Positions 1 through 61,555 of a stretch of DNA of 64,000 bases are shown here, one piece after another (positions within the stretch are counted from its first letter, which is position 1; each line of letters starts with the position of its first letter). The stretch comes from Candidatus Glassbacteria bacterium (GTDB lineage: Bacteria > Gemmatimonadota > Glassbacteria > GWA2-58-10). Below the pieces are notes generated by a model. That model was not told where the DNA came from. It ran no database searches and was given only the letters and a program-made list of their open reading frames with translations. Made by a program: the position numbers and the translations under genes. The DNA is taken from NCBI GenBank assembly GCA_019456185.1, contig VRUH01000007.1:6829-70828 (forward strand), read 5' to 3'.

Positions 1-1503
1 CGGCGGTAAAGCTCAGCGCGACAGTCCAGATCCACCACTCGAGCTGCCTGCTCAAGAAGACTGTCTACTTCCGGGTCGGCGAACCGGGAGTAGTTGCCGG
101 CATCGCCCCAGTTTGACGAGTGGAACAGGGTGTGGAGGAAATTGTGCGCATCGGGAAAATCCCCGACCCAGCTTCCGCGGAAAATCCCGGCCTCCCCCGC
201 GCGAACAGCGGCCAGGAACGCGGCCCATTCCAGGCTCTTGAGCCGGATATCCACGCCGAGCTCGCCCAGGCAGGCCTGGATGAACACGGCCACCCGCCGG
301 TCCACCGGATCGTTGTTGTAGAGCAGGGTCAGCTCCGGCAGGCCCTCCCCGCCCGGATAACCGGATTCGGCCAGCAGGCTGCGGGCGCGCTCGGGGTCGT
401 AGGGGTAGCCGTCCAGGCCGGGATTGTGCCCCGGCAGTCCCGGCGGGACAGCTCCGGCGGAGACCACGTCGACTCCCTCGCCAAGCACTTCCACGATAGC
501 TTTCTTGTTGATCGCGAAATTGAACGCCTGGCGCAGGGTACGGTTACCCCTGAACGGCTCGCGGGTGAGGTTGAAGCCCAAGTAGCGCACCGAGAGTCCG
601 GGCCAGACATGGAGCTGTTCCGGCGTGCGCTTACGCACCAGCCCGACATGGCCGGGCGGGAGCTGGTCGAGCAGGTCCAGCTCGCCGGCGCGGTATTTCT
701 CGTAGGCCACGCTGATATTGGGCGCCACCTCGAACTCCACCCGCTCCACGGCCCGGCCGGCCGCAGGAGGCGAAGCATGTCCGGCGCGCTCCAGCACGAT
801 CCGGCTGTCGTGCTGCCAGCTGACGAAACGGAACGGCCCGGAACCGACCGGCTCCTGGCCAAAGTTGTCCGCGCCCAGCCGCTCCACTTCCTCGCGCGGA
901 ACGATACTGGCCGCGGTCATGGTCAATTGCACCAGAAACGGCGCATAGGGTTCTGCCAGACGGATCACCACCGCGCTGTCGCCCTCGGCGCTCAGCCCCT
1001 CAACGCTGTCCGCGCGTCCCTCGCGGAAATCAGCAGCCCCGGCAACCGGGGTCAGAATCCAGGGCCGCGGGCTGGCGTTGGCCGGGTCAAGCAGGCGGTG
1101 GAACGAATAGACCACATCAGCGGCCGCCACCCTGCGTCCGTTGTGAAAGCGGGCGCCGGGACGGAGCACGAACCGGAACGAGAGGCCGTCGGCTGAAACC
1201 TCCCAGCGCTCCGCCAGCGCGCCGGTCAGTCCGGCGGTGGACGGGTCCAGGCGCAGCAGGGGATCGAACAGGTTGTTGACCACACTCTGGCTCACCAAGT
1301 CCGCGCTGTGGATCGGGTCCAGGCTGGGCGGGTCGCCGGGAATCCGGAAGCGGAAAGTGAGCGTACCCTCGCCGTGCTGCCCGCGCCGATCACCGCCGGA
1401 GCATGCCGCCAGCAGCGCTAAGGACAGTATCAACCAGCAGGCAACTGTGAAAACCGAATAATGCCCACGGGCCCTGATTACCCGCGTATCCAGATAATTG
1501 GTC
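1..1503 (-). CDS. ABC transporter substrate-binding protein, family 5 (peptide/nickel type), lipoprotein. The C-terminus lies beyond the window start, so it is absent from the ORF track
   Basis: Minus-strand ATG at 1503..1501. I translated MTNYLDTRVI..LILSLALLAACSGG (lipobox)..VSWQHDSRIVLERA..GYPYDPERARSLLAESGYPGG..LKSLEWAAFLAAVRAGE with no stop down to position 1. These motifs are typical of SBP_bac_5. Confidence 0.8.
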
Positions 1504-1588
1504 ATGCCGGGAATATAGTCCGCCGGTCCCGGCCGTGTCCAGAGGGGAAGGTTTCAAAAGAACCAGGAGGCACAACCGGCAGCATCAC

Positions 1589-2308
1589 TTACTTATCAGC
1601 TCCCGGCAGTTTCCAGCGCTCCGGATCGTCCTTGACAAAATAGCCGGAGCGCACGATCCGGCCGCTTTCGGCCAGGACGTAGTCGGTGGTGTCGTGGCGG
1701 ACGAAATGCGGATTGCCAAGCAGGTTGACCCCCACCACGGAGCTGTCGGAGGGACCGGTATAGACCAGCAGGTAACGGCTGTCGTTGCGCGGGTTGGGGA
1801 CAGTGAATACCAGCCGCCAGTCCTGTCCGAAAGCAGTCAGATCGCCGATCCGGGCGGTGTCGGCGCTGAACTCGAACGGGAATGTCCCGGCCAGCCGGCG
1901 GGTCACCCGGTTACTCTCCACCGGGCCGTAAAGCAGCAGCGAGTAGTCGCGGATAAGGCCTGAATCGACCTCGCGGTCGGGGTAGACCAGAATGTCCCGG
2001 TCCAGACTCCTGCCCAGCAGGTCGGCGACCTTGTGGGCGTAATCACGCAGGGCGGCGGTGCTTTCGCCATCGGTGCCGTAGACGATCAGCAGGCCCGAGG
2101 GATCGCGGAGAAAGACATCATCGATCGGCCCCGTCAGCGGCCTGTCGCCGCGGTTGGTAAACTTGAGGACCAGCACACAGGCCAGGATCGCGATCAGGCC
2201 GAACTTGACCGACCTGTTGCCGCCAAATATGCCGCGCGATACGGGGAACACGGGCTTCCCGCCCCTGCGTCCGATACGATCAGGCTGTCCCGGGGAACGA
2301 TAGCTCAC
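1589..2308 (-). CDS. Hypothetical protein with one N-terminal transmembrane segment and a likely periplasmic domain
   Basis: 239-aa ORF with hydrophobic stretch FGLIAILACVLVLKF near the N-terminus. It starts 7 nt after the upstream lipoprotein gene ends. No motif recognised. Confidence 0.45.
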   Translation of the reverse strand: MSYRSPGQPDRIGRRGGKPVFPVSRGIFGGNRSVKFGLIAILACVLVLKFTNRGDRPLTGPIDDVFLRDPSGLLIVYGTDGESTAALRDYAHKVADLLGRSLDRDILVYPDREVDSGLIRDYSLLLYGPVESNRVTRRLAGTFPFEFSADTARIGDLTAFGQDWRLVFTVPNPRNDSRYLLVYTGPSDSSVVGVNLLGNPHFVRHDTTDYVLAESGRIVRSGYFVKDDPERWKLPGADK

Positions 2309-2315
2309 AGGGCGC

Positions 2316-3323
2316 TCAGACCAATCCCTGCGACGAGAGGTTGCGGGCCAACTCCTGCAGGTAGGAATTGACCTGCTCGGGGTCGTCCAGACCCAGAATT
2401 CCGATCACCGCGCGGCCTGACTGGACAGCCACCACCTTGCCGTAGTACGAATCCTGCGCGGTAAACAGCGGGGACTCCATCCCCTCCGGCTCCTCGACAT
2501 TCCGGCCGTATTTCTCCATGAATTCCTTGTAGACCCGGTAGCTGCGGGCAGCTTGTTCGAGGTTGTCGTGGAGGATGAAAAACAGCTTGAACTCGCTGCC
2601 GCCGGACTCGTAATCAGCGATAAAACCGTTCTTCAATTCGCTGTGCCCCAGGACGTCCTGGGCCAGATAGCGCTGAGTACCAGCCTGCAGGCCGTTCTCG
2701 GGGAATGCGGCGAGCTGGGACGGATTGCCCGCGGGCGCATCGAGGCGTGCGCTGACGGCGCCGGCGAGCACTTCCAGCAAATCGCCCTTGCCGGTCTGGA
2801 ACGCGGTGACTTTTACGTAGTAGGGTCCCTGCCAGAAATGCAGGGCATTGTCGGTGAGATAGCCCTCGGCGCCGACATCCACGCGCGGTGCCAAGCTGTT
2901 ACGCTCGGCCGAATAGATCCCGAATCCGCAGAGCTGGTCGGCCATCCGGTAGATATCCACCACCGCCTGCAGGGAGCCATCCGAGGTTTCGCAGTCGGCG
3001 GTGATGACGGCCTCGAATTTGTAGACCAGATAGCCCTCGGCGCCGCCGTTGATATACTCCCACAGGTTGTCCGGAACGAATATCCGGGGGTCTCCGCTTA
3101 GCGCCCAGCCTTCCACCTCGCCCTGAACCGGCAGCAGCGCGGTCATCTCGCCGGCCAGCCGGCTGCTGTCGCCCGCCGGCTCCGAGGCTTTTTCAGCGGC
3201 TGCCTGGCGCTCTTGTTCCGATCCGGAGCAGCCGGCAGAGATAAGCACAACAGCAGCCAGGAGAAACACCAACAGGGGTTGAACAACTGAGTGACTGCGC
3301 GACATCGCCCGATGCTCCTTCAA
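2316..3323 (-). CDS. Lipoprotein of unknown function, paralog A of a two-member family in this window
   Basis: Signal peptide plus lipobox LISAGCSG. Shares motifs with the 9865..10923 product: LWEYINGGAEGYL vs LYDLINGGADIFM, and DIYRMADQLCGFGIYS vs KIYRMEDSEAAYGIFS. Confidence 0.6.
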   Translation of the reverse strand: MKEHRAMSRSHSVVQPLLVFLLAAVVLISAGCSGSEQERQAAAEKASEPAGDSSRLAGEMTALLPVQGEVEGWALSGDPRIFVPDNLWEYINGGAEGYLVYKFEAVITADCETSDGSLQAVVDIYRMADQLCGFGIYSAERNSLAPRVDVGAEGYLTDNALHFWQGPYYVKVTAFQTGKGDLLEVLAGAVSARLDAPAGNPSQLAAFPENGLQAGTQRYLAQDVLGHSELKNGFIADYESGGSEFKLFFILHDNLEQAARSYRVYKEFMEKYGRNVEEPEGMESPLFTAQDSYYGKVVAVQSGRAVIGILGLDDPEQVNSYLQELARNLSSQGLV

Positions 3324-3380
3324 AGTTAACTGTACCGGCGGATAAGCCTGTCTCCTTCATAATATAATCAACTTTCAGGC

Positions 3381-4676
3381 TCACCACCACCTGCGATCGC
3401 GGATATACTCGTCGAATTCGCCGCGGTTGCGCAGATTGTGGCCGAAAAAGTGCATCACCAGGCCCTCGTACTCGTAAATCCAGATCTGGTTCAGGCGGCT
3501 GCCGTAAATCTCGGTGGGAGGACCGAGGAGAATATAGACCTCGCCCATATTGGTCTCCCAGCCTTCTTTCTTCTCGGTGGTAAAGTGTTTGTTGGCGTAG
3601 TCGATCCGCTCGAAATACTGGACGCGCAGTTCATTGACCGCCGTGGCCGGCACGGGATCGATTTTGGTCCAGAACTCCTCGAGCGCTTTGGCCTGCTCGT
3701 CCTCGGCGATCGCCTCCAAGCGCTCCATCTCGTTTTCCCGTACCAGGTAGCGAAGGTACTTGATCTCGTTCTTGTAATTTTTGGTCACCCAGTCGGCGCT
3801 GCGGACGATTTTGAATTTGAACGAGGTGGCGCGGGCCAGGCTGGTGTTGTTGGAATCCCGTAACTGGACGTCCAGCTCGTAGGTGCCCAGTCCCATCGTA
3901 CCCGTCGGGATTTCGATCATCTTGCGCTGGCGGATCAAACCGTCCTCCAGCGGCACGTCGACCCGCGGGAAGAGCATCAGCGCTTTCACCACCTCGGCGG
4001 TAAGCTGCCAGTCTTCGGGCAGCGAGGAGCTGTCGGCGTAGATCTCGACCAGCAGCCAGATCGGTTTACCGCTGGGGATCTTCAGGCTGCCCTCGTTCGG
4101 AATCTCGCCTTCCGGCGGCATCGGCGGTCTCCGGCCCTGTTCCAGTCCCTCGGGAGCCGCGTAGAACAACGGAGTGCTGAGCTTGGGCAGGTCAGCGTTA
4201 AAATCGGGCACCTGGACGCTCACGCGGCCGTTGCCGTAGGTGCTGGCCTGCACGTCCTTGACCTCAACGAACCCTTCGTATTTGCCCGGCACCGCGCGGA
4301 TGGTGATAGTCAACGGGTCGAAATGCTCGGCCAGGCTGGTTTCATCGTAGCTGGGAACGTGCACTTTCTTGTCCCATAAGCCCTTGAGGATATTGCGGGT
4401 CTCGGTCTCGCGCATGTTCAGGAACGTTTCGTAATGGGCCTCGTAGTACCTTTCGCCACGGTAAAACAGCAAGTGCTCGTTCTCCACGGTCAGGGTGACC
4501 AGGCAGAGGGTACTGTCCCGGCCGTCCTTGTAAAAACTCATTCTGAACCCGAACGGGACGTCATTTTCGAACGAGTGCAGGTCCTGGGCCAGGGTGATTT
4601 CCGGCTCCGGCAGCGTAACCGCCAGCGCTGCAAACAGCACTCCGGCGGTGATAATCCTCAACGATAATTTCGACAT
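3381..4676 (-). CDS. GWxTD-domain protein, secreted. Start moved to the internal Met before the signal peptide
   Basis: C-terminal KEGWETNMGEVYILLGPPTEIYG matches the GWxTD(RG)...GxP signature. MSKLSLRIITAGVLFAALAV is a signal peptide. ATG at 4676 sits 10 nt after a GGGAGGGGAG RBS. Confidence 0.6.
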   Translation of the reverse strand: MSKLSLRIITAGVLFAALAVTLPEPEITLAQDLHSFENDVPFGFRMSFYKDGRDSTLCLVTLTVENEHLLFYRGERYYEAHYETFLNMRETETRNILKGLWDKKVHVPSYDETSLAEHFDPLTITIRAVPGKYEGFVEVKDVQASTYGNGRVSVQVPDFNADLPKLSTPLFYAAPEGLEQGRRPPMPPEGEIPNEGSLKIPSGKPIWLLVEIYADSSSLPEDWQLTAEVVKALMLFPRVDVPLEDGLIRQRKMIEIPTGTMGLGTYELDVQLRDSNNTSLARATSFKFKIVRSADWVTKNYKNEIKYLRYLVRENEMERLEAIAEDEQAKALEEFWTKIDPVPATAVNELRVQYFERIDYANKHFTTEKKEGWETNMGEVYILLGPPTEIYGSRLNQIWIYEYEGLVMHFFGHNLRNRGEFDEYIRDRRWW

Positions 4677-4719
4677 GCCGTTCACTTTCTCCCCTCCCAG
4701 ATCCTGCCGGCCGATAATG

Positions 4720-6972
4720 TCAATCCCGGACAAAAAACCGGGAATTCCGGCGGAAAGACCTGCCCTGCTGGTTGAGGTCTTCAATATTGATTGAAAGCTC
4801 GTAGAGACCGTTCTCGTTGTCACTGATGTCGATAGCCAGGTCTTCGGTCACCAGATCGCTTTCCAGCGGCGCCTTCTCCTTCTCCATCGTCAGGATCACT
4901 TTCTCCTTGCCGGGACTCGCGCCCAACAGCTTCCGGAAACCGTCATATATTTTACCAAACACGTTGCGGTCGCGTTCCAGTAAAGACATCGAATAGGTGA
5001 TCCGGTAATTGCACCTGCCGTTGGAATCGGGAACCAGGTTGTAGATCTCCTGGTAGACGTACATTTTCTGCGACGGGTGGAACGTGCGCGAGGGCTCCGG
5101 CTGGACCTCCAGCCCGTGGCGCAGGAATTTGCCGGAATCCGCCGGCGAGGCGAAAATCTGCCGGGCGGCGATTATCTGGCTGGCCTGCAGTGAATCCTCC
5201 CGGTAGCTGTCCACCGTCAAGTCGCCGTTGAACGTCCCGACCGAGCCGCCGTTGAGGATTTTGATGAAATAATGGTAATCCCCGGGTTCCAGCTCGATCC
5301 GGACCAGACCCACAATCTGGCGGTCCATCAGATCCCGCGGGTTGATCGAGGTTGTATGGCGGTCGAGCTGCTCGTGCCATTTCACCTGCTCCCAGGCCTG
5401 GTTGTAAATCGCCAGCTGGCTTTTGACCTCGAACTGGAAGCCCTCGCCAGTGTTGTTGGACGTAATCGCCCGCCCGGGCACGCCGGAATAGAACTCAACC
5501 GTACTTTTGCCATTTTCCCGGCCGCGAAATTCCACGAAATCGTACGAGCTTTCCAGCCTGTCGGTATAGGGATAGAGGACGCTTTCGCTGGACAGGGCTT
5601 TTTTCAGGGAAGTGATATTCTGGTCGTATTCATCGAGATGGGTGAACGGATCGTAGGGATTACGCGAGAGGCGGGCGTATATTCCGTTGCCGATTTCCAT
5701 CCGCGAACTGTACAGCTCGGTCATCCACTGGAGCCTGTGCGACTCCTCGGGCGCCGTATGGCTGACCCCTCCCAGCACGCCGCGAAAGTTCATAACCGCG
5801 GCCGTAAGCGAGGTAACCAGCTGGTAGTCGTAACTGCCCTTGAGCGCCACGAAATTGATAATCATGTCGCCGTCGTCGCGATAGTACACCCAGGTCACGT
5901 TGGGATGAAGGCCCTCGCCCATATGCTTGACCGACCGGTTGGGAGCCCCGTGGCGGATATGAATCACCCCGCGGTCATCGTAGCCCAGCGCCTCCTCCGG
6001 CACATAGCCCATCGAGGGATGAATGGAGGGACTGCGGCTGATAAACGGTACGCGGAACAGCGAATCGGCGGCCTGAAGGCGGCCATAGTGCTGGACAATC
6101 CTCACGCCGGGGGTAAGTCCGAGTTCGTGGTCTCGTTTGAGCCAGAAAGAACGGAAAAACTCCTCTGCCCGCTCCGGGCCGATATTCTTGTAAGTGTCAT
6201 GCTCTTCCCTGCCGGCCAGCATGACCAGGTCGTGAAAAAAAGGCTGCATCTGCTCCCGGGTTTTGATATCCGAGACGCCCTGCCAGTAATAGCGGAGTCC
6301 CTCGGCATATTTGGACCTGTAAAAATTTATCCGCGCCAGCTCCAGTTCCACCAGCGGATCGCCCTCGGCGACCTGGTGTTCCACGGCCTCGCGCAGAATC
6401 CGCTCGGCATTGACCAGATCTCCGCTGGCTTTGTGCAGTACGGCCAGCTTGAGGATGATGTCCCGCTTCAGGCCCCCAAGCTCGTAAGCCCGCCGCATGT
6501 GATCCAGCGCCAGGCCGGTATCGCTCTGGTCGAAACGGCGCATATAGGCGCTGCCGAGCCAGTAATGGGCCACCCACCATTCCGGGGCCAGCTCGACCGC
6601 GGTCTTTAGATGCCCTATCGCGCGGGAGATGTTGTCGTGGTGGAACAGGCGCTCCAAGGCCTGGAAGATGATAATCCGGCTGTCCCTGCTGATCAACTGG
6701 CTGCGGCCCAGCCCCACATGTACGCGGGAGTCGTCGGGTGCAATCTCCCTCGCCTGCTTAAAGGTGTGGCCGGCCAGTTCGCTGTCATCGTTCAGCAGCT
6801 GCTGCTCGCCGAGGCGGATCAGGGTGGTGAGCCTGGTGCGGACCGTGTCCTGGGGGATAGTCCGGTCGGGAATCATCTCAGCGGCGTTATCACCGGCGGC
6901 GGCAGCGGAAGGTCCGGCGGCTGCGATCAGCCACAAGAGCAGTACGGCCGTCGGGGAGGATAATTTTTGCAT
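4720..6972 (-). CDS. TPR-repeat plus GWxTD-domain protein, secreted
   Basis: 750 aa with an N-terminal signal (LLLWLIAAAGPSAAAA), helical TPR-like repeats (WLGSAYMRRFD..) and the signature EALGYDDRGVIHIRHGAPN. It lies 43 nt upstream of the other GWxTD gene. Confidence 0.6.
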   Translation of the reverse strand: MQKLSSPTAVLLLWLIAAAGPSAAAAGDNAAEMIPDRTIPQDTVRTRLTTLIRLGEQQLLNDDSELAGHTFKQAREIAPDDSRVHVGLGRSQLISRDSRIIIFQALERLFHHDNISRAIGHLKTAVELAPEWWVAHYWLGSAYMRRFDQSDTGLALDHMRRAYELGGLKRDIILKLAVLHKASGDLVNAERILREAVEHQVAEGDPLVELELARINFYRSKYAEGLRYYWQGVSDIKTREQMQPFFHDLVMLAGREEHDTYKNIGPERAEEFFRSFWLKRDHELGLTPGVRIVQHYGRLQAADSLFRVPFISRSPSIHPSMGYVPEEALGYDDRGVIHIRHGAPNRSVKHMGEGLHPNVTWVYYRDDGDMIINFVALKGSYDYQLVTSLTAAVMNFRGVLGGVSHTAPEESHRLQWMTELYSSRMEIGNGIYARLSRNPYDPFTHLDEYDQNITSLKKALSSESVLYPYTDRLESSYDFVEFRGRENGKSTVEFYSGVPGRAITSNNTGEGFQFEVKSQLAIYNQAWEQVKWHEQLDRHTTSINPRDLMDRQIVGLVRIELEPGDYHYFIKILNGGSVGTFNGDLTVDSYREDSLQASQIIAARQIFASPADSGKFLRHGLEVQPEPSRTFHPSQKMYVYQEIYNLVPDSNGRCNYRITYSMSLLERDRNVFGKIYDGFRKLLGASPGKEKVILTMEKEKAPLESDLVTEDLAIDISDNENGLYELSINIEDLNQQGRSFRRNSRFFVRD

Positions 6973-7160
6973 AATCTATATCCACCACCCGTCAACTGAC
7001 GGGTTCAGATGTGATCCGGTCTGTTGCACAGCTTTATACATTGCCTGTCACCCAAAGGTTCCGGTGCTTTGATATTTGCCGCGAAATACCTTAAAACGCA
7101 GCCGTGCACTATATTTATAACAGTCCATCAGCCATTTTTCCACTCTCATTTTCTGCCTGA

Positions 7161-7194
7161 AGCCCAAAAAAAGGCGCCCCGCCCGGGCCGCCCA
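7161..7194 (-). terminator. Rho-independent terminator after the polyferredoxin gene
   Basis: On the minus strand a GC-rich imperfect hairpin (GGGCGGCCCGGGCGGGGCGCC) is followed by TTTTTTT. It lies 33 nt past the stop at 7227. Confidence 0.5.
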
Positions 7195-7226
7195 TCAACG
7201 CTCTCACATGTTTTCAACCGCTCATC

Positions 7227-8843
7227 TCAAACTTCGCCCCCGCCGTAGACATCCAGCAGCAGCTGATTTTCCTGACTGCGGGACTCGCCGATCGAGGTGC
7301 AGTAAATTCCCGGCTTGTCGACCAGCGGGCAGGCATACTCGCAGATTCCGCAGCCGATACACAGGTGCGGGTCCACTTTGGGCTGCTTGATCACCTTGGA
7401 AACTCCCTCGCGGTCTGTTACCTCCACTTCCTCGAAATAGATCGCCTTCTTGGGCGTCGGGCAGACTTCCTCGCAGACGATGCAGCTGCGCCCGAGCGAG
7501 TATGGGAGACAGCGGTTCATGTCGAAAATCGCCAGGCCGATAACCGTCCGGTGCTTCTGCTCGGTGGTCAGTAGCTCGATAGCGCCCGTGGGACAGACCT
7601 GACCGCAGAGGGTGCAGTTGAACTCGCAGTAGCCGAGCTGCATTTTCAGGTACGGGGACCAGAACCCCTCCAGGCCGGCCTCCATCAGGGTGGGATGGAT
7701 CGCGTTCTTGATGCAGACTTTCATGCACTCTCCGCACTTGATACAGCGCTTGAGGAACTCCTCCTCGGCCACCGCGCCCGGCGGACGGATCAGGACGGGA
7801 TTGAACTTCCTGCCCTCGCGTCCGCTCCCCACCCGCGCTGACGGCGGCGGCTTGCGCGGATCGATCCGGAACAGGGCCAGCGCGCCCACAGCCGCGGCCG
7901 CCGAGGCCAGCACAGCCCGTTTACCGATATCCACCGAGGCTTCTCCGCGGGCGGGCAGGCCCAGACCCAGGCTGATCGAATCGTGGGGGCAGGCCTCCAC
8001 GCAGTTCCAACAGGTCAGGCACTCGCTGCGCATCCAGCTTTCTGTGCTGTGCGGCTCGCAGGCTCCCTCGCAGTTGCGCTTGCAGAGCATGCAGTTGGTG
8101 CAGGTCTGTTTGTCCACTTTCAGCTTGAGCAGGCTGAACCGGCCCAGCAGTCCCAGCAGGGCGCCCAGCGGACAGAGGTAGCGGCACCAGAATCTGCGGC
8201 GGAGTTGGTTCAGCACCGCAATCGCCACGAACAGCAGACCGATAAACAGGCCCTGGTAGAAATAGGGCTGCTCGAAAGACAGCACGTGGCTGCGCAGGAA
8301 CAGGAACACAGGCTCGACAATCGCGCTCAGCCAGGGCCGGTCCAACACCAGCAGCGGGTAGAACAGCGCCCGCGTGAGAAAATTGAACACCGGGTTAACC
8401 GCCAGGCTGAACGAGCGGATCAGCACGGAGAACGGGTCGAGGAAGCCGACAATCTGCAAGCCCAGGATTGATGCGATCAGCAAAAAGATAACGGCCACGT
8501 ATTTCCAGCTCTGGCGGCGGTCGTAGCGGTTGCGGCGGACATTTTCGGCCGTCTTGAGCCGGTTGTGGCTCAGGACGTGGTTCAGCGTGCCCATCGGGCA
8601 GACCCAGGCGCAGAAAAAGCGGCCGAACGCCACGGTAACCGCCACGGTCAGCAGGCTCCAGAGCATCATCGCGGGCAGGCTGTGAGCGGCGAAAAAAGCG
8701 GCCGCGGCCACCAGGGGATCGAAATCGAAGAAAATCTTGACCGGGTAACTGATCTGGTCGGTGCCCTTGTACTCGGTCATCACCAGCAGGAAGAGGAACA
8801 GAACGAAAAACAGAACCTGGCTGACCCTGCGCGCGTTCCGCAT
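7227..8843 (-). CDS. Membrane polyferredoxin of the NapH/MauN type (4Fe-4S binding protein)
   Basis: Two FxxCxWxCP membrane motifs (GRFFCAWVCPMG and RRFWCRYLCPLG). Several CxxCxxCxxxCP ferredoxin clusters (CIKCGECMKVC, CTLCGQVCP, CIGCGICEYACP). Multiple hydrophobic helices. Confidence 0.7.
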   Translation of the reverse strand: MRNARRVSQVLFFVLFLFLLVMTEYKGTDQISYPVKIFFDFDPLVAAAAFFAAHSLPAMMLWSLLTVAVTVAFGRFFCAWVCPMGTLNHVLSHNRLKTAENVRRNRYDRRQSWKYVAVIFLLIASILGLQIVGFLDPFSVLIRSFSLAVNPVFNFLTRALFYPLLVLDRPWLSAIVEPVFLFLRSHVLSFEQPYFYQGLFIGLLFVAIAVLNQLRRRFWCRYLCPLGALLGLLGRFSLLKLKVDKQTCTNCMLCKRNCEGACEPHSTESWMRSECLTCWNCVEACPHDSISLGLGLPARGEASVDIGKRAVLASAAAAVGALALFRIDPRKPPPSARVGSGREGRKFNPVLIRPPGAVAEEEFLKRCIKCGECMKVCIKNAIHPTLMEAGLEGFWSPYLKMQLGYCEFNCTLCGQVCPTGAIELLTTEQKHRTVIGLAIFDMNRCLPYSLGRSCIVCEEVCPTPKKAIYFEEVEVTDREGVSKVIKQPKVDPHLCIGCGICEYACPLVDKPGIYCTSIGESRSQENQLLLDVYGGGEV

Positions 8844-9787
8844 CAGATCTCGACCTCCGAGGTCCGGACGGCGTTCAGATCGAGAGTGCCCAGGCCCATC
8901 CGGCTGCCGATTTCAAGATAGCCGATCGCGGCGGGATCGATCCCGAAAAAGCCCGCGGCGCGGGCATCGGCGGCCACCGGGTCTACTGAGGCGATCACCG
9001 TGTCCAGCTGCTTGACATCGCCCAGGCTGCCGCCCGAGGGTCCGTTGGCGGTCAGAATCCGCACGGCGTCGATCACGGTCAGGGCCGGGGCGAAAAAGCG
9101 GGTCATCTCGGCAATCGAGAGGTGGACATCCTGGTGGAGCTGGTTGCGCCGTCCGCCCATCAGCCCGTAGAAGTTCTTCATCCCCAGCGTCAGGCGGCTC
9201 AACGAGTGGTGCTTGGCGATCGGGACGTTGATAATCCGGTCCACCTCCAGCGCCTCGCGGTAAACCGGCCACTCCTTGATCAACTCGCCGCCCACATTCA
9301 CTCGCCGGAAATTGTAGTCCTCCAGGAACGGCACCTCCGCGCCGACTTCCTCGGCCGCGGCTTTGATCCCGCTGCGCACGTAACAGCGCCTAGGGTCGTT
9401 GATCGTGTTGTCCAGCACGGTCACTTTGGCCGCGCCGGCATCCAGGCACATGGCGCACAGCTCGGCGACAACCTCGGGATTTGTCGTGGCCGCCTGGGCC
9501 GGGACCCTGTCCCAGCCGATATTGGGCTTGATCATCACCTTGTCGCCCCGGCTGACAAACACGCCCATCCCGCCGAGTTCCTCCACCGCCCGCCGGGTAA
9601 TCGCGCGGGCGTCCGCACCCTTGACCACCGACATTTCAGCCCCGACCACGTTAACCGGCCTGGGGCTGCGTCCGCCGGCGGCGGCAACTGACCCGCCCGA
9701 GCCCTCGCCTCCCCCACAGGCCCCCAGAGCGGCCGCGGCAGCCGAGCCACCCAGGAGTTTGAGAAAGCTTTTTCTATTCAGAGACAT
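8843..9787 (-). CDS. DUF362-domain protein carrying a Tat-like (RK variant) signal and a lipobox
   Basis: MSLNRKSFLKLLGG..AALGACGGG at the N-terminus, then a DUF362-like core (MIKPNIGW.., NVPIAKHHSLSRLTLGMKNFYG). Its stop overlaps the polyferredoxin start as ATGA, which suggests translational coupling. Confidence 0.55.
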   Translation of the reverse strand: MSLNRKSFLKLLGGSAAAAALGACGGGEGSGGSVAAAGGRSPRPVNVVGAEMSVVKGADARAITRRAVEELGGMGVFVSRGDKVMIKPNIGWDRVPAQAATTNPEVVAELCAMCLDAGAAKVTVLDNTINDPRRCYVRSGIKAAAEEVGAEVPFLEDYNFRRVNVGGELIKEWPVYREALEVDRIINVPIAKHHSLSRLTLGMKNFYGLMGGRRNQLHQDVHLSIAEMTRFFAPALTVIDAVRILTANGPSGGSLGDVKQLDTVIASVDPVAADARAAGFFGIDPAAIGYLEIGSRMGLGTLDLNAVRTSEVEI

Positions 9788-9864
9788 AGTTAGGTCCTCC
9801 TGAGACCTTAAACGTCTTAATCGTGCCGATGGTACACTTTTGCCGATAACTGCCGGTGAGCCTG

Positions 9865-10923
9865 TTAATTCTTGCTGCCCGAGCCCGTGGACATGCCGCC
9901 GCCGGGGGGATTACCCGTCCCGTGCGGTGATGCCGACCGCTCCGGCTTGACCGCACTGTGGGGATTGCTTTTCCCCGTGTCGTGCAGCGCACCGGCCTGA
10001 TCGAACAGGGCGGTAATCTGGGTTGTCCGCAGGATTACCACGTCCATTCTGTCCAGATGAGTGTAGACTATCCGCTTGTCGGTGATCTTGGCGGTCGCGC
10101 TGTCGGCGGCGGCCAGATCGGCCTTGTCACGGTAAAAGGCGGTCACCGAAGAGAAAACAGCCTCGGCGAGGGTGGAATCCGGGTACTGGACCACCAGGAA
10201 ACTGGCCGGGTTGCTGTTTTCGCGCATCCGGTAGGCACCAAACGCGCCGGGAATGCTGTCGCTGATGGTAAACACGTTCTCGTCACCGACAAAGCGTAGT
10301 GAATTCAGCCCCAGCGGACCCTCGAGATAGGTCTCCGTATGCGGGATCAATCCGCGGCGCGGCAGCAGGGACAGGATATCGGGCCAATCATCCGGCTCAT
10401 CGGCCAGTTCAAGCTCGATTCGCGAGGCGATCTCATCGAGAGCCGCGGCGGTAACCTGATCGCGGTCCGCAGCCTGAACATCGACAAAATATTCTCCCGC
10501 ACAGAACAGGACCCGGTAGTCTCCGCGAGCGCCGATAGTGCCTTTCGAGACCGGGCGGTGCGAAATCTTCCGGTTGACACTGAAGATCCCGTACGCGGCT
10601 TCGGAGTCTTCCATGCGGTAGATCTTGGCCACGATCGAAACGCCGCTGCCGGATGCGTACTCTTTGACCGCGGTTTCCTCGCAGCCGAACTCCATGAAGA
10701 TATCCGCGCCGCCGTTAATGAGATCATAGAGTTCGCGGCCGCTGTAGACTTGGGCTTGACTGCCGGCAACCGTGCCCTCCGGCAGTTCGCTCAACGGGAA
10801 CAGGGCCGTCAACTCGCTCGGCCCATCAGAGCCCGCTTGCTTAGCTCCGCCACAGGCAATCAGCGCAGTAATAACCGCAGCCAGCAGCAAGCGGGTGATC
10901 CCGTTTAGAGAATTCTGACTCAT
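9865..10923 (-). CDS. Lipoprotein of unknown function, paralog B
   Basis: Lipobox LIACGG. Shared motifs with the 2316..3323 product (LINGGAD, KIYRMEDSEAAYGIFS). Confidence 0.6.
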   Translation of the reverse strand: MSQNSLNGITRLLLAAVITALIACGGAKQAGSDGPSELTALFPLSELPEGTVAGSQAQVYSGRELYDLINGGADIFMEFGCEETAVKEYASGSGVSIVAKIYRMEDSEAAYGIFSVNRKISHRPVSKGTIGARGDYRVLFCAGEYFVDVQAADRDQVTAAALDEIASRIELELADEPDDWPDILSLLPRRGLIPHTETYLEGPLGLNSLRFVGDENVFTISDSIPGAFGAYRMRENSNPASFLVVQYPDSTLAEAVFSSVTAFYRDKADLAAADSATAKITDKRIVYTHLDRMDVVILRTTQITALFDQAGALHDTGKSNPHSAVKPERSASPHGTGNPPGGGMSTGSGSKN

Positions 10924-11027
10924 CCAGACCTCCAGCCGGGCATCGGTCTTCCCGGCAGTAGCTGATAACCTGCTCAGTTAAAGGTTGGAATTTACCGGAT
11001 CATAACCGAATTGTCAATTGCGGGCGG

Positions 11028-11942
11028 TCATCCCTGACAGCCCTCAAAAAAGCGTATCGTGGCCAGCAGGCATTCACGCTGATCCGGTTCCGGCCGGTAA
11101 CCCAGCGATTTGAGGCGCGAGATGTCGGCGTAGCTGGTATGGATATCGCCCGAACGGGGACCGGCATGGATCAGCTTGCTCGAGGAGCCGGTGAGGTCGA
11201 TAATCTGCCGGGCGATATCGTTGATCGTGATATGTTCGCCGCGGGCGACGTTGCACACCGGACCACCTTTTTCCGAAGCCAGTACGCAGGCGGAAACGAC
11301 GTCTTTGACATAGACGAAATCGCGTACCTGGGTACCGTCGCCGTACACCGTGATATCCTCGCCACGCAAGGCCCTGTGAATGAAAATCGGAATAGCGGCG
11401 GCATACTGGCTCCGGGGGTCCTGGCGCGGCCCGAAGACGTTGAAAAACCTGAGCGGTCCCGCCCCCACGCCCCACTCGTCCTCGAAAATCTTCAGGTAAT
11501 ACTCGCCATCGAGCTTGGTCACAGCGTAAGGACTCTTGGGTTCGGGCAGCATATCCTCGCGTTTGGGCACCACCGGGTTATCGCCATAGACCGCCGCGCT
11601 GGAGGTGAATACCACGCGTTCCACTCCGTGTTCACGGGCGGCTTCGAGGACATTGAGCGTACCCTGTGTATTGATCTCCACGCACTCCGCCGGCTTTCCC
11701 AGACTTTCCGGCACACTGATCATCGCCGCCAGGTGAAACACCCGGTCCACGCCCTCGAACAGCGGAAACAGTCTCTCCCTGTCCGTAATCGTCACCTCGT
11801 GGAACTGATGGTTCAGGCCATCCAGGTTGCTCCGGTAACCGGTACGAAGGTTGTCGACAACTACTACCTCGTGGCCGGCATGAAAATGCTCGACAACGTG
11901 ACTGCCGATAAAACCGGCTCCGCCGGTAACCAGAATGCGCAT
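11028..11942 (-). CDS. NAD-dependent epimerase/dehydratase (UDP-sugar 4-epimerase-like, SDR family)
   Basis: MRILVTGGAGFIGSH Rossmann motif at the adjusted start (ATG 11942). Catalytic YAVTK (YxxxK). Length is typical for GalE/WcaG-like enzymes. Confidence 0.8.
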   Translation of the reverse strand: MRILVTGGAGFIGSHVVEHFHAGHEVVVVDNLRTGYRSNLDGLNHQFHEVTITDRERLFPLFEGVDRVFHLAAMISVPESLGKPAECVEINTQGTLNVLEAAREHGVERVVFTSSAAVYGDNPVVPKREDMLPEPKSPYAVTKLDGEYYLKIFEDEWGVGAGPLRFFNVFGPRQDPRSQYAAAIPIFIHRALRGEDITVYGDGTQVRDFVYVKDVVSACVLASEKGGPVCNVARGEHITINDIARQIIDLTGSSSKLIHAGPRSGDIHTSYADISRLKSLGYRPEPDQRECLLATIRFFEGCQG

Positions 11943-12193
11943 CAGCAAGTGCTCCGGGACAATGAAAAACTTACGGACCGTCCTGAATTCCAACCGGCTG
12001 TTAATTTGCCACCCTCCCGCTGATAAATCAAGCGCATACGGTGGGCGCAAGCCGTTTCAAAACATCCACGTCATTGACAAAATTTGGCAGTTCCGCTAAC
12101 TTTCGGACTCTTTCCCGGTTATACCAGAACCGATTACCCGGATAATAATTAAGCGTTTGATCTCATCATAAAGTTTGTCTGCAAGGAGGACCG

Positions 12194-13558
12194 GTGGCTA
12201 ATACATTTTCGACTACGCCGAAAACAGTTCCCGAGGTGTCCACTGCCAACCGCACGATTAAAACCCGGATTCCGGTACCTGAATCTCTGCCTGTTATCGA
12301 TAAACTGCGCAAGTACGAGCCGATCTCGATGTCCGGCCAGCCGCTGGTGCTGTGGAACAAGGGTGAGGGCGCAACTGTCTGCGACTCGTGGGGCAACCGC
12401 TGGATCGACTGGTCGAGCGGAGTGCTGATCACCAACGCGGGCCACAACAACCCCCGAATCCGTCAGGCGATTATCGACCAGGCCGAGTCGGGGCTGCTGA
12501 CCAGCTACTGTTTTCCCAACAACCCCAGGGCGCGCCTTGCCGAACTGCTGGTGGAGATTACGCCGAAAGAACTGACCAAGGCGTTTATCCTCACCACCGG
12601 CAGCGAAACTGTGGAATGCTGCCTTAAGCTGATGCGCACCAACGGCCTGCGCAAACACGGCAAAGACAAGATAACGATTGTCAGCTTCACTAACGCGTTT
12701 CACGGCCGCACCCTGGGAGCCCAGCAGCTCGGCGGGATCCCCAAGCTGAAAGACTGGATCGTCAACACCGATCCCAATATCGTACAGGTAGCGTTCCCCG
12801 ACGGGTTCCGTAACCCGGACACCAGTTTCGCGGGGTTCGAGAAAGCCCTGGCCGAACAAGGGGTCACACCGGAGTCGGTGGCCGGCGTGATCCTGGAAAC
12901 TTACCAGGGCGGCGGCGCCAGTTTCGCTCCTGTCGAGTATATCATGGCCCTGCGTGAGTGGTGCGACAAGCATGGAGCGCTGCTCACGTTCGATGATGTC
13001 CAGGCAGGGTTCGGACGCTGCGGCAAGATGTTCGGCTTCGAGCACTACGGAGTCATCCCCGACCTGACATGTTTCGGCAAGGGTATCAGCAGCAGCCTGC
13101 CGGTTAGCGCCGTGCTGGGCCGCGAGGAAGTGATGAACCTCTACGGTCCGAACGAAATGACCAGCACACATACGGGCAACCCCGTCTGCGCGATGGCCGC
13201 GGTGGCCAATATCGGATCGATTATCGATGACAAGCTGGTCGAGAACGCCGCCGCCATGGGCCAGGTGCTGCTCGACGCTCTGGCGGGTCTGATGACCAAG
13301 TACGACTCGGTGATCGGCGCAGTACACGGCAAAGGCCTGGTGGCCGGGGTTCATGTAGTCAAGCCGGGTGGGATCGAGCCGGATGCCGACCTGGCCTGGC
13401 ACGTGGTCAACAGCTGCGTGGAAAAGGGCCTGCTGATGTTCGCGCCGGTTGGTTTCGGCGGCGGCACCGTGAAAATCTGCCCGCCGCTGGTGATCAACCG
13501 CGATCAGGTGGAGGAAGGCCTGGCCGTGCTGGACGAGGCTTTCGAGGAAAATCTCTAG
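12194..13558 (+). CDS. Class-III (PLP-dependent) aminotransferase family protein
   Basis: 454 aa with motifs LTFDDVQAGFGRCGKMFGFEHYG and TCFGKGISSSLP (Schiff-base Lys region). GTG start 3 nt after AAGGAGG. Confidence 0.8.
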   Translation: MANTFSTTPKTVPEVSTANRTIKTRIPVPESLPVIDKLRKYEPISMSGQPLVLWNKGEGATVCDSWGNRWIDWSSGVLITNAGHNNPRIRQAIIDQAESGLLTSYCFPNNPRARLAELLVEITPKELTKAFILTTGSETVECCLKLMRTNGLRKHGKDKITIVSFTNAFHGRTLGAQQLGGIPKLKDWIVNTDPNIVQVAFPDGFRNPDTSFAGFEKALAEQGVTPESVAGVILETYQGGGASFAPVEYIMALREWCDKHGALLTFDDVQAGFGRCGKMFGFEHYGVIPDLTCFGKGISSSLPVSAVLGREEVMNLYGPNEMTSTHTGNPVCAMAAVANIGSIIDDKLVENAAAMGQVLLDALAGLMTKYDSVIGAVHGKGLVAGVHVVKPGGIEPDADLAWHVVNSCVEKGLLMFAPVGFGGGTVKICPPLVINRDQVEEGLAVLDEAFEENL

Positions 13559-40300: not shown

Positions 40301-44407
<4,107 letters not shown>

Positions 44408-44482
44408 CCTCTTGAGGGTAAAATTGAAAGTTTCTCAAATTATTCCAGTTAACAAGCTGCGGCCTCAGGGGCCCGGGAGTCC

Positions 44483-56198: not shown

Positions 56199-57137
56199 TC
56201 AAAGCTTGTGGGCGGTGCCGATCAGGGAACCGATCTCCTCGACTTCCATCTCAGCGCACCACCCGGCCAGGCCCTCGATCACCTGGCGCGCGGCCTGGGG
56301 ATGGACGAAACTGGCGGTGCCCACCTGGACCAGGCTGGCCCCGGCCATGATATATTCCAGCGCGTGCTCGGCGTTGACAATCCCGCCGATCCCGATAATC
56401 GGCAGCGGGTGGTCCATCCGCAGCATCTGCTGGTAGACCTTGTACACACAGGCCACGCCCACCGGTCGAATGGCCGGGCCGCTCAGCCCGCCGAAGCCGT
56501 GGGCCAGCACGGGCTTGCGGCGCTTGATGTCGATTTTCATCCCGGGCAGGGTGTTGATCAGACTCAGCGCGTCGGCCCCCGCCTCCACGGCCGCTTCGGC
56601 CAGGGCGGCGATATCGGTGACATTGGGGGTTAGCTTGGCGATCACCGGCACTTCGACTTTAGCGCGGATACCCGAGACAACGCTACGCACGCTCTTGCAG
56701 TCGGCGCCGAAATGGATATAGCCGGCCTTGATATTGGGGCAGCCCAGGTTGACCTCCAGGGCGTCCACGCCATCGGCCCGCCCCACCGCCTCGGCCACCT
56801 CGATAAATTCCTCGACACTGAAACCCGCGACATTGACCACCACCCGCGAGTTACCGGCGTGTTTCACAATCCAGGGCAGCTTCTCGTCCAGGAACACGTC
56901 GAGCCCCACGTTGGCCAGGCCGATAGAGTTGAGCATCCCGCTGTCGGTCTCCACAATCCGCGGAGTCGGGTTGCCCTTGCGCGCCTGGCGGGTGATTGTC
57001 TTGGTCACCAGCGCGCCGAGTTCGCTGAACGGCATGATGTCGAAATACTCATCCCCGTAGCCGAACGTGCCGCTGGCCACCAGTACCGGGTTCTGGAACT
57101 CCAGGCCCATGCAGCGGATTGTCAGGTCAGGGTCCAT
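56199..57137 (-). CDS. pyrD: Dihydroorotate dehydrogenase catalytic subunit (class 1B)
   Basis: MDPDLTIRCMGLEFQNPVLVASGTFGYG and NLGCPN. Adjusted ATG at 57137. Confidence 0.85.
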   Translation of the reverse strand: MDPDLTIRCMGLEFQNPVLVASGTFGYGDEYFDIMPFSELGALVTKTITRQARKGNPTPRIVETDSGMLNSIGLANVGLDVFLDEKLPWIVKHAGNSRVVVNVAGFSVEEFIEVAEAVGRADGVDALEVNLGCPNIKAGYIHFGADCKSVRSVVSGIRAKVEVPVIAKLTPNVTDIAALAEAAVEAGADALSLINTLPGMKIDIKRRKPVLAHGFGGLSGPAIRPVGVACVYKVYQQMLRMDHPLPIIGIGGIVNAEHALEYIMAGASLVQVGTASFVHPQAARQVIEGLAGWCAEMEVEEIGSLIGTAHKL

Positions 57138-59670: not shown

Positions 59671-59700
59671 GTTCCCCGCTTCATTGTCTCCGGCGCAGGC

Positions 59701-60915: not shown

Positions 60916-60924
60916 CGGCCCGGC

Positions 60925-61410
60925 TCACAGATCCCTTACTTTACGCAATTCGCGTTCGGTTTCACGCTCGGCGGTCTTTCGCTTGAGGTCCTCGCGCTTG
61001 TCGTGGAGCTTTTTGCCCCGTGCCAGTGCGATTTTGACTTTCGCCCAGCCATCGCGGAAATAGATACTCAGCGGGACGAGGGTGAGCCCGCGTTCGAGCA
61101 CTTTCGTCTGCAGCCTGCCGATCTCCCGGCGGCTGAGCAGCAGCTTGCGTTCGCGCAGCGGGTCGTGGTTGTTCCGGTTACCCTGGCTGTATTCGTCGAT
61201 GTGGCAGCCCACCAGGAACACTTCGCCGTCACGGAGCTGGGCGTAGCTCTCCGGCAGGCTGGCCTTGCCGCTGCGCAGTGATTTGACCTCGGTGCCTGTC
61301 AGCACGAGACCGGCCTCGAACTCCTCGATAATATGGTACCGGTAGCGGGCCTTGCGGTTACGGCACACCACCCGGACATTTTCCTCGTCCTTTGTATCTT
61401 TTCCAGCCAT
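60925..61410 (-). CDS. smpB: SsrA-binding protein SmpB
   Basis: 161 aa with RKARYRYHIIEEFEAGLVLTGTEVKSLR. Confidence 0.9.
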   Translation of the reverse strand: MAGKDTKDEENVRVVCRNRKARYRYHIIEEFEAGLVLTGTEVKSLRSGKASLPESYAQLRDGEVFLVGCHIDEYSQGNRNNHDPLRERKLLLSRREIGRLQTKVLERGLTLVPLSIYFRDGWAKVKIALARGKKLHDKREDLKRKTAERETERELRKVRDL

Positions 61411-61555
61411 GATTGATGTCTTGTCCTGGATGATCCGACCAGCCGCGAGTGCTCCTCCGGGTTAATACACCCGGCCTGCTTCCGATGTTCGCGCGGGGCG
61501 CCCGCGACGAACTATGTATGATAGATTTACGGACGTTGAAAATCAAGAAAAATGC

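Follow-up and report, generated by a model that had tools for sequence, protein, structure and literature searches.

Several described systems or families come close to the genes considered here. The GWxTD family (PF20094/TIGR04514) is uncharacterised, and the GWxTD module of other phyla has partners of its own, namely another GWxTD gene, a TPR protein and CarboxypepD_reg/outer-membrane-barrel proteins. The recurrent neighbours of DUF6599 genes elsewhere are genes for a DUF362 protein and a NapH/NapG-like polyferredoxin, or for Fe-S aldo-keto reductases; a literature search found no published mention of the DUF6599 family. A complete Opp/Dpp operon (OppABCDF, DppABCDF) holds together a family-5 substrate-binding protein (SBP), two permeases and one or two ATPases. 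In Candidatus Glassbacteria, relatives of these proteins are encoded in a single gene array, along with a membrane-anchored protein termed X. The protein families of the array are already catalogued but unstudied, and the domain of X has no family model. Probably, the array is a mosaic of separable envelope modules that is specific to this class, rather than a dedicated machine built of GWxTD proteins and an importer.

Composition of the array

The window, i.e. the whole 64-kb stretch of DNA that was analysed, originates from Candidatus Glassbacteria (Gemmatimonadota), and an exact copy of its 750-aa protein is present on the source contig (L001). The placement of this lineage is also backed by PMC11596202. 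An earlier note had described a five-gene cluster on the minus strand, and the ORF list locates all five ORFs in the order given, with starts and gaps slightly corrected:

1..1505, minus strand: SBP gene, family-5 SBP lipoprotein (SBP_bac_5), cut by the window edge
1512..1541, minus strand: sigma-70-like promoter match TGGACA-18 nt-TATATT in the gap between the X and SBP genes, 10 of 12 positions
1589..2308, minus strand: X gene, 239 aa, one N-terminal transmembrane helix and a periplasmic domain of ~180 aa
2316..3305 (or ..3323), minus strand: DUF6599b gene, lipoprotein with lipobox LISAGC (PF20244)
3381..4676, minus strand: GWxTD gene, 431 aa, secreted (PF20094 and TIGR04514)
4720..6972, minus strand: TPR-GWxTD gene, 750 aa, secreted (ORF list, HMMs, hhalign)
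7172..7184, minus strand: terminator-like GC hairpin with a run of seven T in the 254-nt gap 5' of the TPR-GWxTD gene (sequence scan)

The first intergenic gap is 43 nt and the last is 83 nt; the second and third are, depending on the starts chosen, 57 or 75 nt and 7 or 64 nt. Of the gaps originally reported, 43 nt stands, 57 and 7 nt hold with the longer starts, and the last, given as 85 nt, is 83 nt. An export signal can be read in each of the five products: a Sec signal peptide in two of them, a lipobox in two (LISAGC and LLAAC) and an N-terminal membrane anchor in one. The earlier note had suggested looking for the rest of the transporter just left of the window, and two BPD_transp_1 permease genes follow the SBP gene on L001 (17135-18915, at +2 and -1 nt). 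The earlier statement that this side carries neither permease nor ATPase genes is correct for the ATPase, whereas the permeases were missing only because the window stops within the SBP gene. The full array comprises seven genes on one strand, in the order TPR-GWxTD, GWxTD, DUF6599, X, SBP, permease, permease.

The two GWxTD proteins

HMM searches bear out both GWxTD assignments, TIGR04514 scoring above its cut-off of 28 bits for the 750-aa product (33.4 bits) and for the 431-aa product (99.5 bits). The larger protein consists of a Sec signal, TPR repeats (~50-230), a divergent GWxTD domain (~243-389) and a beta-rich C-terminal region. Its TIGR04514 alignment covers model positions 3-64 only, and a Pfam search gives no PF20094 match at E <= 0.01. 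The hhalign comparison of five orthologs with 16 GWxTD proteins yields a probability of 98.4% (E 8.7e-15, 130 columns) over residues 243-389. In place of the GWxTD signature this protein has LGYDDRG, and its orthologs have PYDDRG, with W changed to Y and the register shifted. Judged from these alignments, it is a divergent member of the family with a complete domain. Assignment to PrsT, the TPR lipoprotein of XrtA/PEP-CTERM systems (TIGR02917), was rejected, its 18.9 bits falling short of the 312-bit cut-off and reflecting generic TPR similarity only.

The 431-aa protein, already annotated at NCBI as a GWxTD domain-containing protein, begins with a signal peptide, continues with two beta-sandwich domains (~40-290) and ends in a GWxTD domain (~296-431), which is matched by PF20094 with 76.4 bits (cut-off 26.9) and by TIGR04514 at model positions 3-105. 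If translated from an alternative GTG at 4685, the protein would be 434 aa long, as several orthologs are. Its motif, GWETNMG, retains G, W and T, has N for D, and is invariant in 12 orthologs; across 60 diverse GWxTD members G is invariant and W nearly so. For the beta-sandwich pair, AF2 models give generic structural matches only (TM ~0.2). All 38 orthologs of this protein are on Glassbacteria-type contigs.

The pair resembles its counterparts in other lineages in that a large TPR-containing GWxTD protein is encoded beside a smaller one with beta-sandwiches. In domain order, however, the large protein runs TPR, GWxTD, beta and its smaller partner beta, beta, GWxTD, in contrast to GWxTD, beta, TPR in P0037, P0038 and locus L103, and the motif has drifted to GYDDR and GWETN, respectively. 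The two secreted proteins may together serve as a non-enzymatic scaffold in the periplasm or associated with the outer membrane, built of TPR repeats, beta-sandwiches and a GWxTD domain composed of a helical bundle and a small sheet. We infer this role from the fact that neither a catalytic motif nor an enzyme-like fold was found in them.

The DUF6599 lipoprotein and its second copy

The lipoprotein encoded next, initially regarded as novel, belongs to the Pfam family PF20244 (DUF6599), the match scoring 140.1 bits (cut-off 27) and covering positions 2-183 of the 186 in the model. Translation from ATG 3305 yields 329 aa and from TTG 3323 yields 335 aa; the former start is the likelier one, because it is preceded by the Shine-Dalgarno motif AAGGAG, and the gene caller chose the 329-aa form on the source contig. 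A second copy, DUF6599a, is encoded at 9865-10923 (103.9 bits with PF20244; 29% identity to DUF6599b) and directly precedes the genes for a DUF362 protein and a polyferredoxin. The DUF362 protein has both a lipobox and a Tat motif of the RK type, and the 538-aa polyferredoxin unites NapH-like and NapG-like parts. DUF6599b is a clear member of the family, and it is its paralog that adjoins the redox pair.

At the nearest outgroup locus of DUF6599b the order DUF362, polyferredoxin, DUF6599 is contiguous, whereas here two GWxTD genes, and sometimes also a PP-loop gene, part DUF6599b from the redox pair. Since the DUF362-polyferredoxin pair lies just upstream, the GWxTD pair looks inserted between it and DUF6599b, if this one outgroup locus reflects the older arrangement. 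Distant DUF6599 genes adjoin Aldo_ket_red genes, with or without Fer4. In the four distant loci examined, neither GWxTD nor SBP genes are found beside DUF6599.

Membrane-anchored protein X

The start preferred by the gene caller for X, GTG 2251, yields 220 aa instead of 239. Searches with X give no Pfam or NCBIfam match, and its domain has no match among PDB sequences. Exhaustive HMMER searches yield 466 relatives at E <= 1e-3, and the domain recurs in proteins bearing DUF4932, Peptidase_S9, Esterase and NPCBM domains. Residues ~55-235 of X align with the accessory C-terminal domains of the S9 peptidases, esterases and DUF4932 proteins with E values down to 1e-19, with GP, D, G, PNP, D, G and W among the positions conserved in both. 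Unlike these proteins, X has the domain alone behind a membrane anchor, without a hydrolase. X carries an accessory domain whose other occurrences are in fusions with secreted S9 peptidases, esterases and DUF4932.

Substrate-binding protein and importer

The SBP is 554 aa long on the source contig; the part of it inside the window matches SBP_bac_5 (PF00496) with 293.9 bits (cut-off 32.4), and the alignment takes in positions 3-367 of the 368 in the model. Its best NCBIfam match is DppA, yet at 200 bits it is far below the equivalog cut-off of 1005, and the scores for OppA (157 against 947) and NikA (100 against 393) likewise reject equivalog assignments; the query used was short by 53 residues, too few to explain these shortfalls. 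Its best relatives in the PDB, with E values from 1e-71 to 1e-60, are binding proteins for peptides, dipeptides and glutathione/haem (HbpA). By these similarities the SBP is of the DppA/OppA/HbpA type, and together with the two permeases it would form a peptide-type importer, as homology suggests, with ATPases encoded elsewhere.

The resemblance to DppABCDF and OppABCDF lies in a family-5 SBP gene followed by two BPD_transp_1 permease genes, one of them with an OppC_N-type N-terminus in L004. The difference lies in the low equivalog scores and in the ATPase genes, which are not adjacent. No ORF with both Walker A and LSGGQ is present in the 64-kb window or on L001, and gene calls at five loci (L001, L003-L006) show no ATPase gene adjoining the SBP and permease genes. 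The combination of an SBP, two permeases and one or two ATPases is therefore incomplete at this locus.

Transcription of the array

The genes had been proposed to form an operon. This agrees with their common strand, their short gaps, which range across five genomes from -4 to 134 nt and in L004 from -4 to 24 nt, and the hairpin ahead of the first gene. The hairpin at 7172..7184 is likely the 5' boundary of the transcription unit, and in L004 and L005 a similar hairpin with a T-run can be read ahead of the TPR-GWxTD gene. Within the array there are also a weak hairpin at 4751-4737 and the promoter-like match at 1541-1512, which ends 7 nt ahead of the SBP ATG and is possibly an internal promoter. 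Neither of them is conserved; in particular, the gap between the X and SBP genes is 3 nt in L004 and consists of unrelated sequence in L003, L005 and L006. The promoter scan returned 4 sites against 2.5 +/- 1.6 expected by chance, under promoter rules that are not established for this class. Both the scan and the orthologous loci show no strong conserved internal terminator in the array. Probably, the seven genes form one transcription unit starting after the terminator at ~7180, to judge from gene arrangement and sequence signals.

Conservation within and outside Glassbacteria

The seven-gene order is intact in all 15 Glassbacteria contigs examined, wherever the contig extends far enough; the array is unbroken in each, with protein identities of 44-81%. 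This synteny is not specific to the array, because the unrelated genes that flank it over ~20 kb (among them aminotransferase, epimerase, YggT, FtsX, polyprenyl synthase and ApbE) are collinear and equally conserved in the same contigs. Gene gain and loss is observed only at the junction between the polyferredoxin and TPR-GWxTD genes, never within the array; L003, L004 and L006 have a PP-loop gene there, and L003 additionally has a GFO_IDH_MocA gene on the opposite strand.

Outside the class we compared 80 metagenome loci, a biased sample that is essentially one Acidobacteriota-type orthologous subfamily, three further GWxTD loci (L018, L102, L103) and the four distant DUF6599 loci. Genes for DUF6599, X, a family-5 SBP, the permeases and DUF362 are found within 10 kb in 0 of the 80 Acidobacteriota-type loci, and those for DUF6599, X, the SBP and the permeases are also absent from the further three. 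The SBP and permease HMMs used were built from five orthologs, and very distant family-5 systems could escape them. Among the 58 Acidobacteriota-type loci with at least 1.5 kb of downstream sequence, 52 have a same-strand CarboxypepD_reg gene in the +1 position (median gap 39 nt). In L103 the order is GWxTD+TPR (685 aa), GWxTD (288 aa), CarboxypepD_reg+TPR, and in L102 it is GWxTD, TPR, GWxTD, with a CarboxypepD_reg outer-membrane barrel protein nearby. Two non-Glassbacteria lineages retain a module of GWxTD, TPR and GWxTD. The CarboxypepD_reg/outer-membrane partner is absent from the Glassbacteria array, which has DUF6599, X and the importer instead. The pairing of GWxTD genes with an SBP, put forward earlier as a contextual lead, therefore is a weak lead that is restricted to the class, the pairing being lost outside Glassbacteria, and not one for the family as a whole.

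Alternative explanations

A mosaic of modules has to be reconciled with the unbroken array and with the L004 junctions packed at 3-24 nt, both of which fit a shared function. One alternative is a dedicated functional system of Glassbacteria, in which an extracellular, polymer-derived substrate, e.g. peptides, would be captured or processed at the envelope by the GWxTD pair together with DUF6599b and X, and then passed to the Dpp-type SBP and the permeases. The invariant order in 15 contigs, the L004 spacing, the export of all products and the terminator ahead of the first gene with no conserved internal one are consistent with such a system, as are the peptide-type SBP and the fusion of the X domain elsewhere to S9 peptidases and esterases. 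We nevertheless regard it as rather unlikely, given that the association recurs in none of the 83 GWxTD loci from elsewhere and in none of the four distant DUF6599 loci, that the high background synteny of the class makes conservation little informative, that Pfam and NCBIfam recognise a hydrolase domain in none of the four non-SBP proteins, and that the ATPases are absent.

A wider unit, a supercluster of ~13 kb running from DUF6599a to the importer (10923 to past position 1), in which a quinol-linked periplasmic DUF362 redox enzyme would work with the downstream genes, appears improbable. Two DUF6599 paralogs flank the block, the adjacency of the genes is retained in all Glassbacteria loci, DUF362, polyferredoxin and DUF6599 adjoin one another at the outgroup locus, and the Tat motif and lipobox of DUF362 and the NapH-like and NapG-like parts of the 538-aa protein suit such an enzyme. 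However, in L001, L004 and L005 terminator-like hairpins lie between the TPR-GWxTD gene and the polyferredoxin (or PP-loop) gene, the same junction is the spot of gene gain and loss, including the opposite-strand gene in L003, and GWxTD loci elsewhere lack DUF362. The opposite extreme, mere neighbours with separate promoters and an independent SBP/permease unit, their short gaps reflecting a compact genome, is in our view very improbable. It would account for the promoter-like match 7 nt upstream of the SBP ATG, for an X-SBP gap that varies from 3 to 104 nt without sequence conservation, for gaps of 107-134 nt in L003, L005 and L006, and for the different partners of the modules elsewhere. Yet the promoter scan is close to chance expectation, no strong internal terminator is conserved, and in L004 every junction is at most 24 nt, with just 3 nt between the X and SBP genes.

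Gene content of the array

The segment 1-6972 contains five consecutive minus-strand ORFs, as the earlier note had proposed, and ORF calls bear out this arrangement:

4720-6972, minus strand: TPR-GWxTD gene, ORF of 750 aa
3381-4676, minus strand: GWxTD gene, ORF of 431 aa
2316-3323, minus strand: lipoprotein gene DUF6599b, ORF of 335 aa
1589-2308, minus strand: gene of the membrane-anchored protein X, ORF of 239 aa
1-1505, minus strand: family-5 substrate-binding protein (SBP) gene, ORF interrupted by the window edge

ORFs on the opposite strand of this segment (58-67% GC) overlap the five genes and have no family support. Two starts can be placed alternatively. In DUF6599b, ATG 3305 lies 9 nt behind an AAGGAG and was picked by the source-contig gene caller, giving 329 aa; the same caller starts X at GTG 2251, giving 220 aa. 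The 239-aa version of X is favoured because the orthologs have long N-termini and 12-18 nt gaps. Given these alternatives, the gaps are 43, 57 or 75, 7 or 64, and 83 nt. Of the previously claimed gaps, the first (43 nt) is confirmed, the next two (57 and 7 nt) are possible, with 75 and 64 nt as alternatives, and the last one is 83 rather than 85 nt. Judged by directly read N-termini, the five products are all predicted to be extracytoplasmic: both GWxTD proteins carry Sec signal peptides, DUF6599b and SBP have lipoboxes (LISAGC and LLAAC, respectively), and the 239-aa X has one N-terminal membrane helix. At NCBI, the array products are named as proteins of Candidatus Glassbacteria, a class of Gemmatimonadota in PMC11596202, and the entry for the 431-aa gene, whose start there gives 450 aa, already bears the name "GWxTD domain-containing protein".

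Family assignments

Both GWxTD assignments were upheld by HMM and profile comparison, the 750-aa protein being a divergent member. HMM search places the 431-aa protein clearly within the GWxTD family (PF20094, 76.4 bits; TIGR04514, 99.5 bits). The 750-aa protein combines TPR repeats with a TIGR04514 match of 33.4 bits (cut-off 28) that covers only the initial portion of the model, and the Pfam GWxTD model does not match it. When an alignment of five 750-aa orthologs was compared with 16 diverse GWxTD proteins by hhalign, the GWxTD domain was found at residues 243-389 (probability 98.4%, E 8.7e-15), with YDDRG occupying the usual position of GWxTDRG. BLASTP gives no match between the 431-aa and 750-aa proteins, and their homology is visible at the profile level only. 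Assignment of the 750-aa protein to PEP-CTERM/PrsT, PilW, YbgF, or MamA was rejected as generic TPR similarity, far under cut-offs.

The lipoprotein, previously taken to be novel, is a member of DUF6599 (PF20244, 140 bits). The reading of the fifth protein as a family-5 SBP was correct (SBP_bac_5, 293.9 bits); among proteins of solved structure, it is most similar to peptide, dipeptide, and HbpA-type binding proteins (E 1e-71 to 1e-60). Its score is far under all NCBIfam equivalog cut-offs.

The AF2 model of the 431-aa protein contains two confident beta-sandwich domains (residues 40-290); the GWxTD domain had pLDDT of ~30 in the first run on the full protein. Foldseek with this model returned only generic tandem beta-sandwich matches (TM ~0.2), namely transglutaminase C-terminal barrels, arrestins, and RbmA, and the PDB has no convincing counterpart of the GWxTD domain model. 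Profile searches of PDB sequences with the 431-aa protein, DUF6599, and X gave nothing significant.

The predicted periplasmic domain of X (residues ~55-235) defines an unnamed domain family: neither the 239-aa protein nor the family has a matching Pfam or NCBIfam model, and the family has no match among PDB sequences. An exhaustive HMMER search yielded 466 relatives of X at E <= 1e-3, most of them larger proteins that contain the X-like domain (~180 aa) as a single module. Among 83 domain carriers, DUF4932 is found in 23, Peptidase_S9 in 20, Esterase in 17, and NPCBM in 10. The X-domain also occurs with PDZ and TPR, and among the retrieved relatives P0095-P0239 it is found repeatedly C-terminal to Peptidase_S9/esterase and DUF4932.

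Importer genes and probable transcription unit

The 750-aa protein is encoded identically on the ENA contig ZHAO22-1_SAMN11268109 scaffold_67 (116.7 kb). On the source contig SBP is 554 aa long and is followed by two BPD_transp_1 permease genes at +2 and -1 nt and then by an opposite-strand gene. The search left of the window for the rest of an ABC transporter, suggested in the earlier note, thus produced two permease genes and no ATPase gene after them. No ORF with both Walker A and LSGGQ is present in the 64-kb window or in the 22-kb source-contig locus L001; therefore, the SBP/permease set and a nearby FtsX/MacB_PCD permease are without a reachable ATPase gene.

Gaps in the seven-gene array were compared between the source contig and four orthologous Glassbacteria loci.

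Table. Gaps (nt) along the seven genes, from TPR-GWxTD to the second permease
L001 (source contig): 43, 75, 64, 83, 2, -1
L003: 114, 44, 107, 104, -4, -4
L004: 22, 24, 18, 3, -1, -4
L005: 119, 52, 12, 56, -4, -4
L006: 122, 46, 16, 71, 134, -4

Co-transcription of the array appears plausible in general, and for L004 very likely. In the 254-nt intergenic stretch before the first gene, a GC hairpin is followed by a T7 run (7184-7172), and similar hairpin and T-run elements were read directly in the sequence upstream of the TPR-GWxTD ortholog in L004 and L005. Neither a weak hairpin located at 4751-4737, in the 3' end of the first gene, nor a site resembling a promoter at 1541-1512, directly before the SBP ATG, is conserved; totals of the promoter/terminator scan were close to chance expectation.

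Synteny within Glassbacteria

The 431-aa protein has 38 relatives at an identity of at least 52%. A profile search of genome contigs found it in Glassbacteria- or Gemmatimonadota-labelled MAGs only, plus two evidently mislabelled ones and the distant locus L018. L014 and L017, from MAGs registered as 'Planctomycetota bacterium' and 'archaeon', contain clear Glassbacteria-type array orthologs; these names probably arose from errors in binning or labelling.

Searched with ortholog-derived HMMs, 15/15 contigs show an identical seven-gene order as far as each reaches. The same contigs also retain the upstream flank (aminotransferase, epimerase, DUF6599a, DUF362, and polyferredoxin genes) and the downstream flank (small ORF, YggT, FtsX, polyprenyl synthase, and ApbE genes). 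Since the flanks are equally collinear, conservation of the five genes does not exceed the background collinearity of a narrow lineage.

The one feature of within-class synteny that is informative is where genes have been gained or lost. The genes concerned (PP-loop, GFO_IDH_MocA on the opposite strand, and an additional DUF362) are observed at the polyferredoxin/TPR-GWxTD junction or further upstream, and none inside the array. The PP-loop (NAD_synthase/QueC-like) gene of ~280-300 aa lies at this junction in L003 (4877-7409), L004 (6607-7488), and L006 (6499-7410); it is absent at the equivalent window junction, 6973-7226, and in L005. L003 additionally has the opposite-strand GFO_IDH_MocA gene and a split polyferredoxin. 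On the other side, at L001 19671-20249, ~2.7 kb past the left end of the window, lies an ORF of 192 aa that faintly matches Y1_Tnp (IS200-like); this ORF and an extra 151-aa opposite-strand ORF lie between YggT and FtsX in L001 and are absent in L003-L006.

Genomic context outside the class

The neighbourhood of GWxTD, lipoprotein, and SBP_bac_5 genes, proposed earlier for a cross-genome comparison, is constant in the 15 Glassbacteria contigs, as far as each extends, and absent in the outside loci examined. A metagenome scan yielded 80 loci of an Acidobacteriota-type GWxTD subfamily (~580 aa; one cluster member is labelled Thermoanaerobaculia). The outside sample as a whole, dominated by this one GWxTD subfamily and including four distant DUF6599 loci, is small and biased. 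Within <=10 kb around these GWxTD genes, HMMs for DUF6599, X, SBP5, permease, and DUF362 (those for SBP and permease built from five orthologs) had no match. Hence, family-wide synteny of GWxTD with DUF6599 or SBP5 was rejected (0/80 metagenome loci; the single GWxTD-like gene of L018 lies amid the housekeeping genes valS, prfA, prmC, and murA). A candidate GWxTD gene near DUF6599 in the Calditrichia locus L021 was not confirmed by Pfam, its ORF matching TPR, HEAT, and YfiO only.

The next same-strand gene encodes a CarboxypepD_reg protein of ~595 aa in 52/58 of those metagenome loci that have at least 1.5 kb of downstream sequence, with a median gap of 39 nt. An example is provided by L062:

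9135-10913: GWxTD gene
10930-12714, same strand: CarboxypepD_reg gene

Two loci of other lineages have related arrangements. L103 contains GWxTD+TPR (685 aa), GWxTD (288 aa), and CarboxypepD_reg+TPR genes with junctions that overlap or span 18 nt, and L102 contains GWxTD, TPR, and GWxTD genes with a CarboxypepD_reg outer-membrane barrel nearby. Searches for CarboxypepD_reg relatives were negative both for the window and for five Glassbacteria loci (L001, L003-L006). As a contextual lead for GWxTD, the CarboxypepD_reg neighbour is much stronger than SBP: across phyla, the recurrent companions of GWxTD genes are TPR and CarboxypepD_reg or outer-membrane-barrel genes.

DUF6599 has partners of another kind. 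Its second copy in the window, 29% identical to DUF6599b, belongs to a trio upstream of the array:

9865-10923, minus strand: lipoprotein gene DUF6599a
8843-9787, minus strand: DUF362 gene, with an RK-type Tat motif (NRKSFLK) and a lipobox
7227-8843, minus strand: polyferredoxin gene, fused NapH-like/NapG-like, 538 aa

On the non-Glassbacteria contig of P0079, the closest outgroup of DUF6599b (37% identity), members of these three families also adjoin one another, ordered DUF362, polyferredoxin, DUF6599. The trio (window 7227-10923) is also observed in L003-L010, L015, and L016. It appears to be a quinol-linked periplasmic redox module that has not been described before. DUF362 and the LarA N-terminal domain belong to the same Pfam clan (PMC11770544). 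Three distant DUF6599 members adjoin Aldo_ket_red genes, with Fer4 domains in two of the latter; none of four distant DUF6599 loci examined has GWxTD or SBP5, and the scan found no DUF6599 relatives on viral contigs. Thus, the contextual lead for DUF6599 is its association with DUF362/polyferredoxin or with Fe-S aldo-keto reductase genes; like that for GWxTD, it is sounder than the link proposed in the earlier note.

Origin and meaning of the array

The array is real and probably co-transcribed. Because its components have other partners in all the other contexts examined, it is best described as a class-specific mosaic. It combines (i) a GWxTD/TPR module, which in other lineages is associated with CarboxypepD_reg or outer-membrane proteins; (ii) a DUF6599 lipoprotein, elsewhere found with redox modules of the periplasm or membrane, such as the one located immediately upstream here; (iii) X as a stand-alone copy of a hydrolase-accessory domain; and (iv) a probable Dpp/Opp-type importer without its ATPases. 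The simplest history, drawn from a single outgroup locus, would be insertion of the GWxTD pair between polyferredoxin and DUF6599b.

Another scenario is that the GWxTD pair, DUF6599, X, and the Dpp-type importer form one operon for an undescribed capture-and-uptake envelope system in Glassbacteria. The gene order invariant within the class, the tight packing in L004, the export of all products, and the peptidase affinities of X are in line with such a system, which would offer a first clue to what the GWxTD and DUF6599 families do. However, we consider it unlikely, because it has no support outside Glassbacteria and synteny within the class says little.

Each of the named families already has a catalogue entry; what is new is their arrangement, a lineage-restricted one of known but unstudied kinds. 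A full-text search of a literature library found no paper mentioning GWxTD or DUF6599; both are widespread families of exported proteins without published function, which the window locus does not reveal. The GWxTD-SBP juxtaposition is limited to one poorly sampled class and should not be transferred as functional annotation to other genomes.

Elsewhere in the window, very large ORFs are located at 40301-48289 and a six-tRNA set at 51857-61767.
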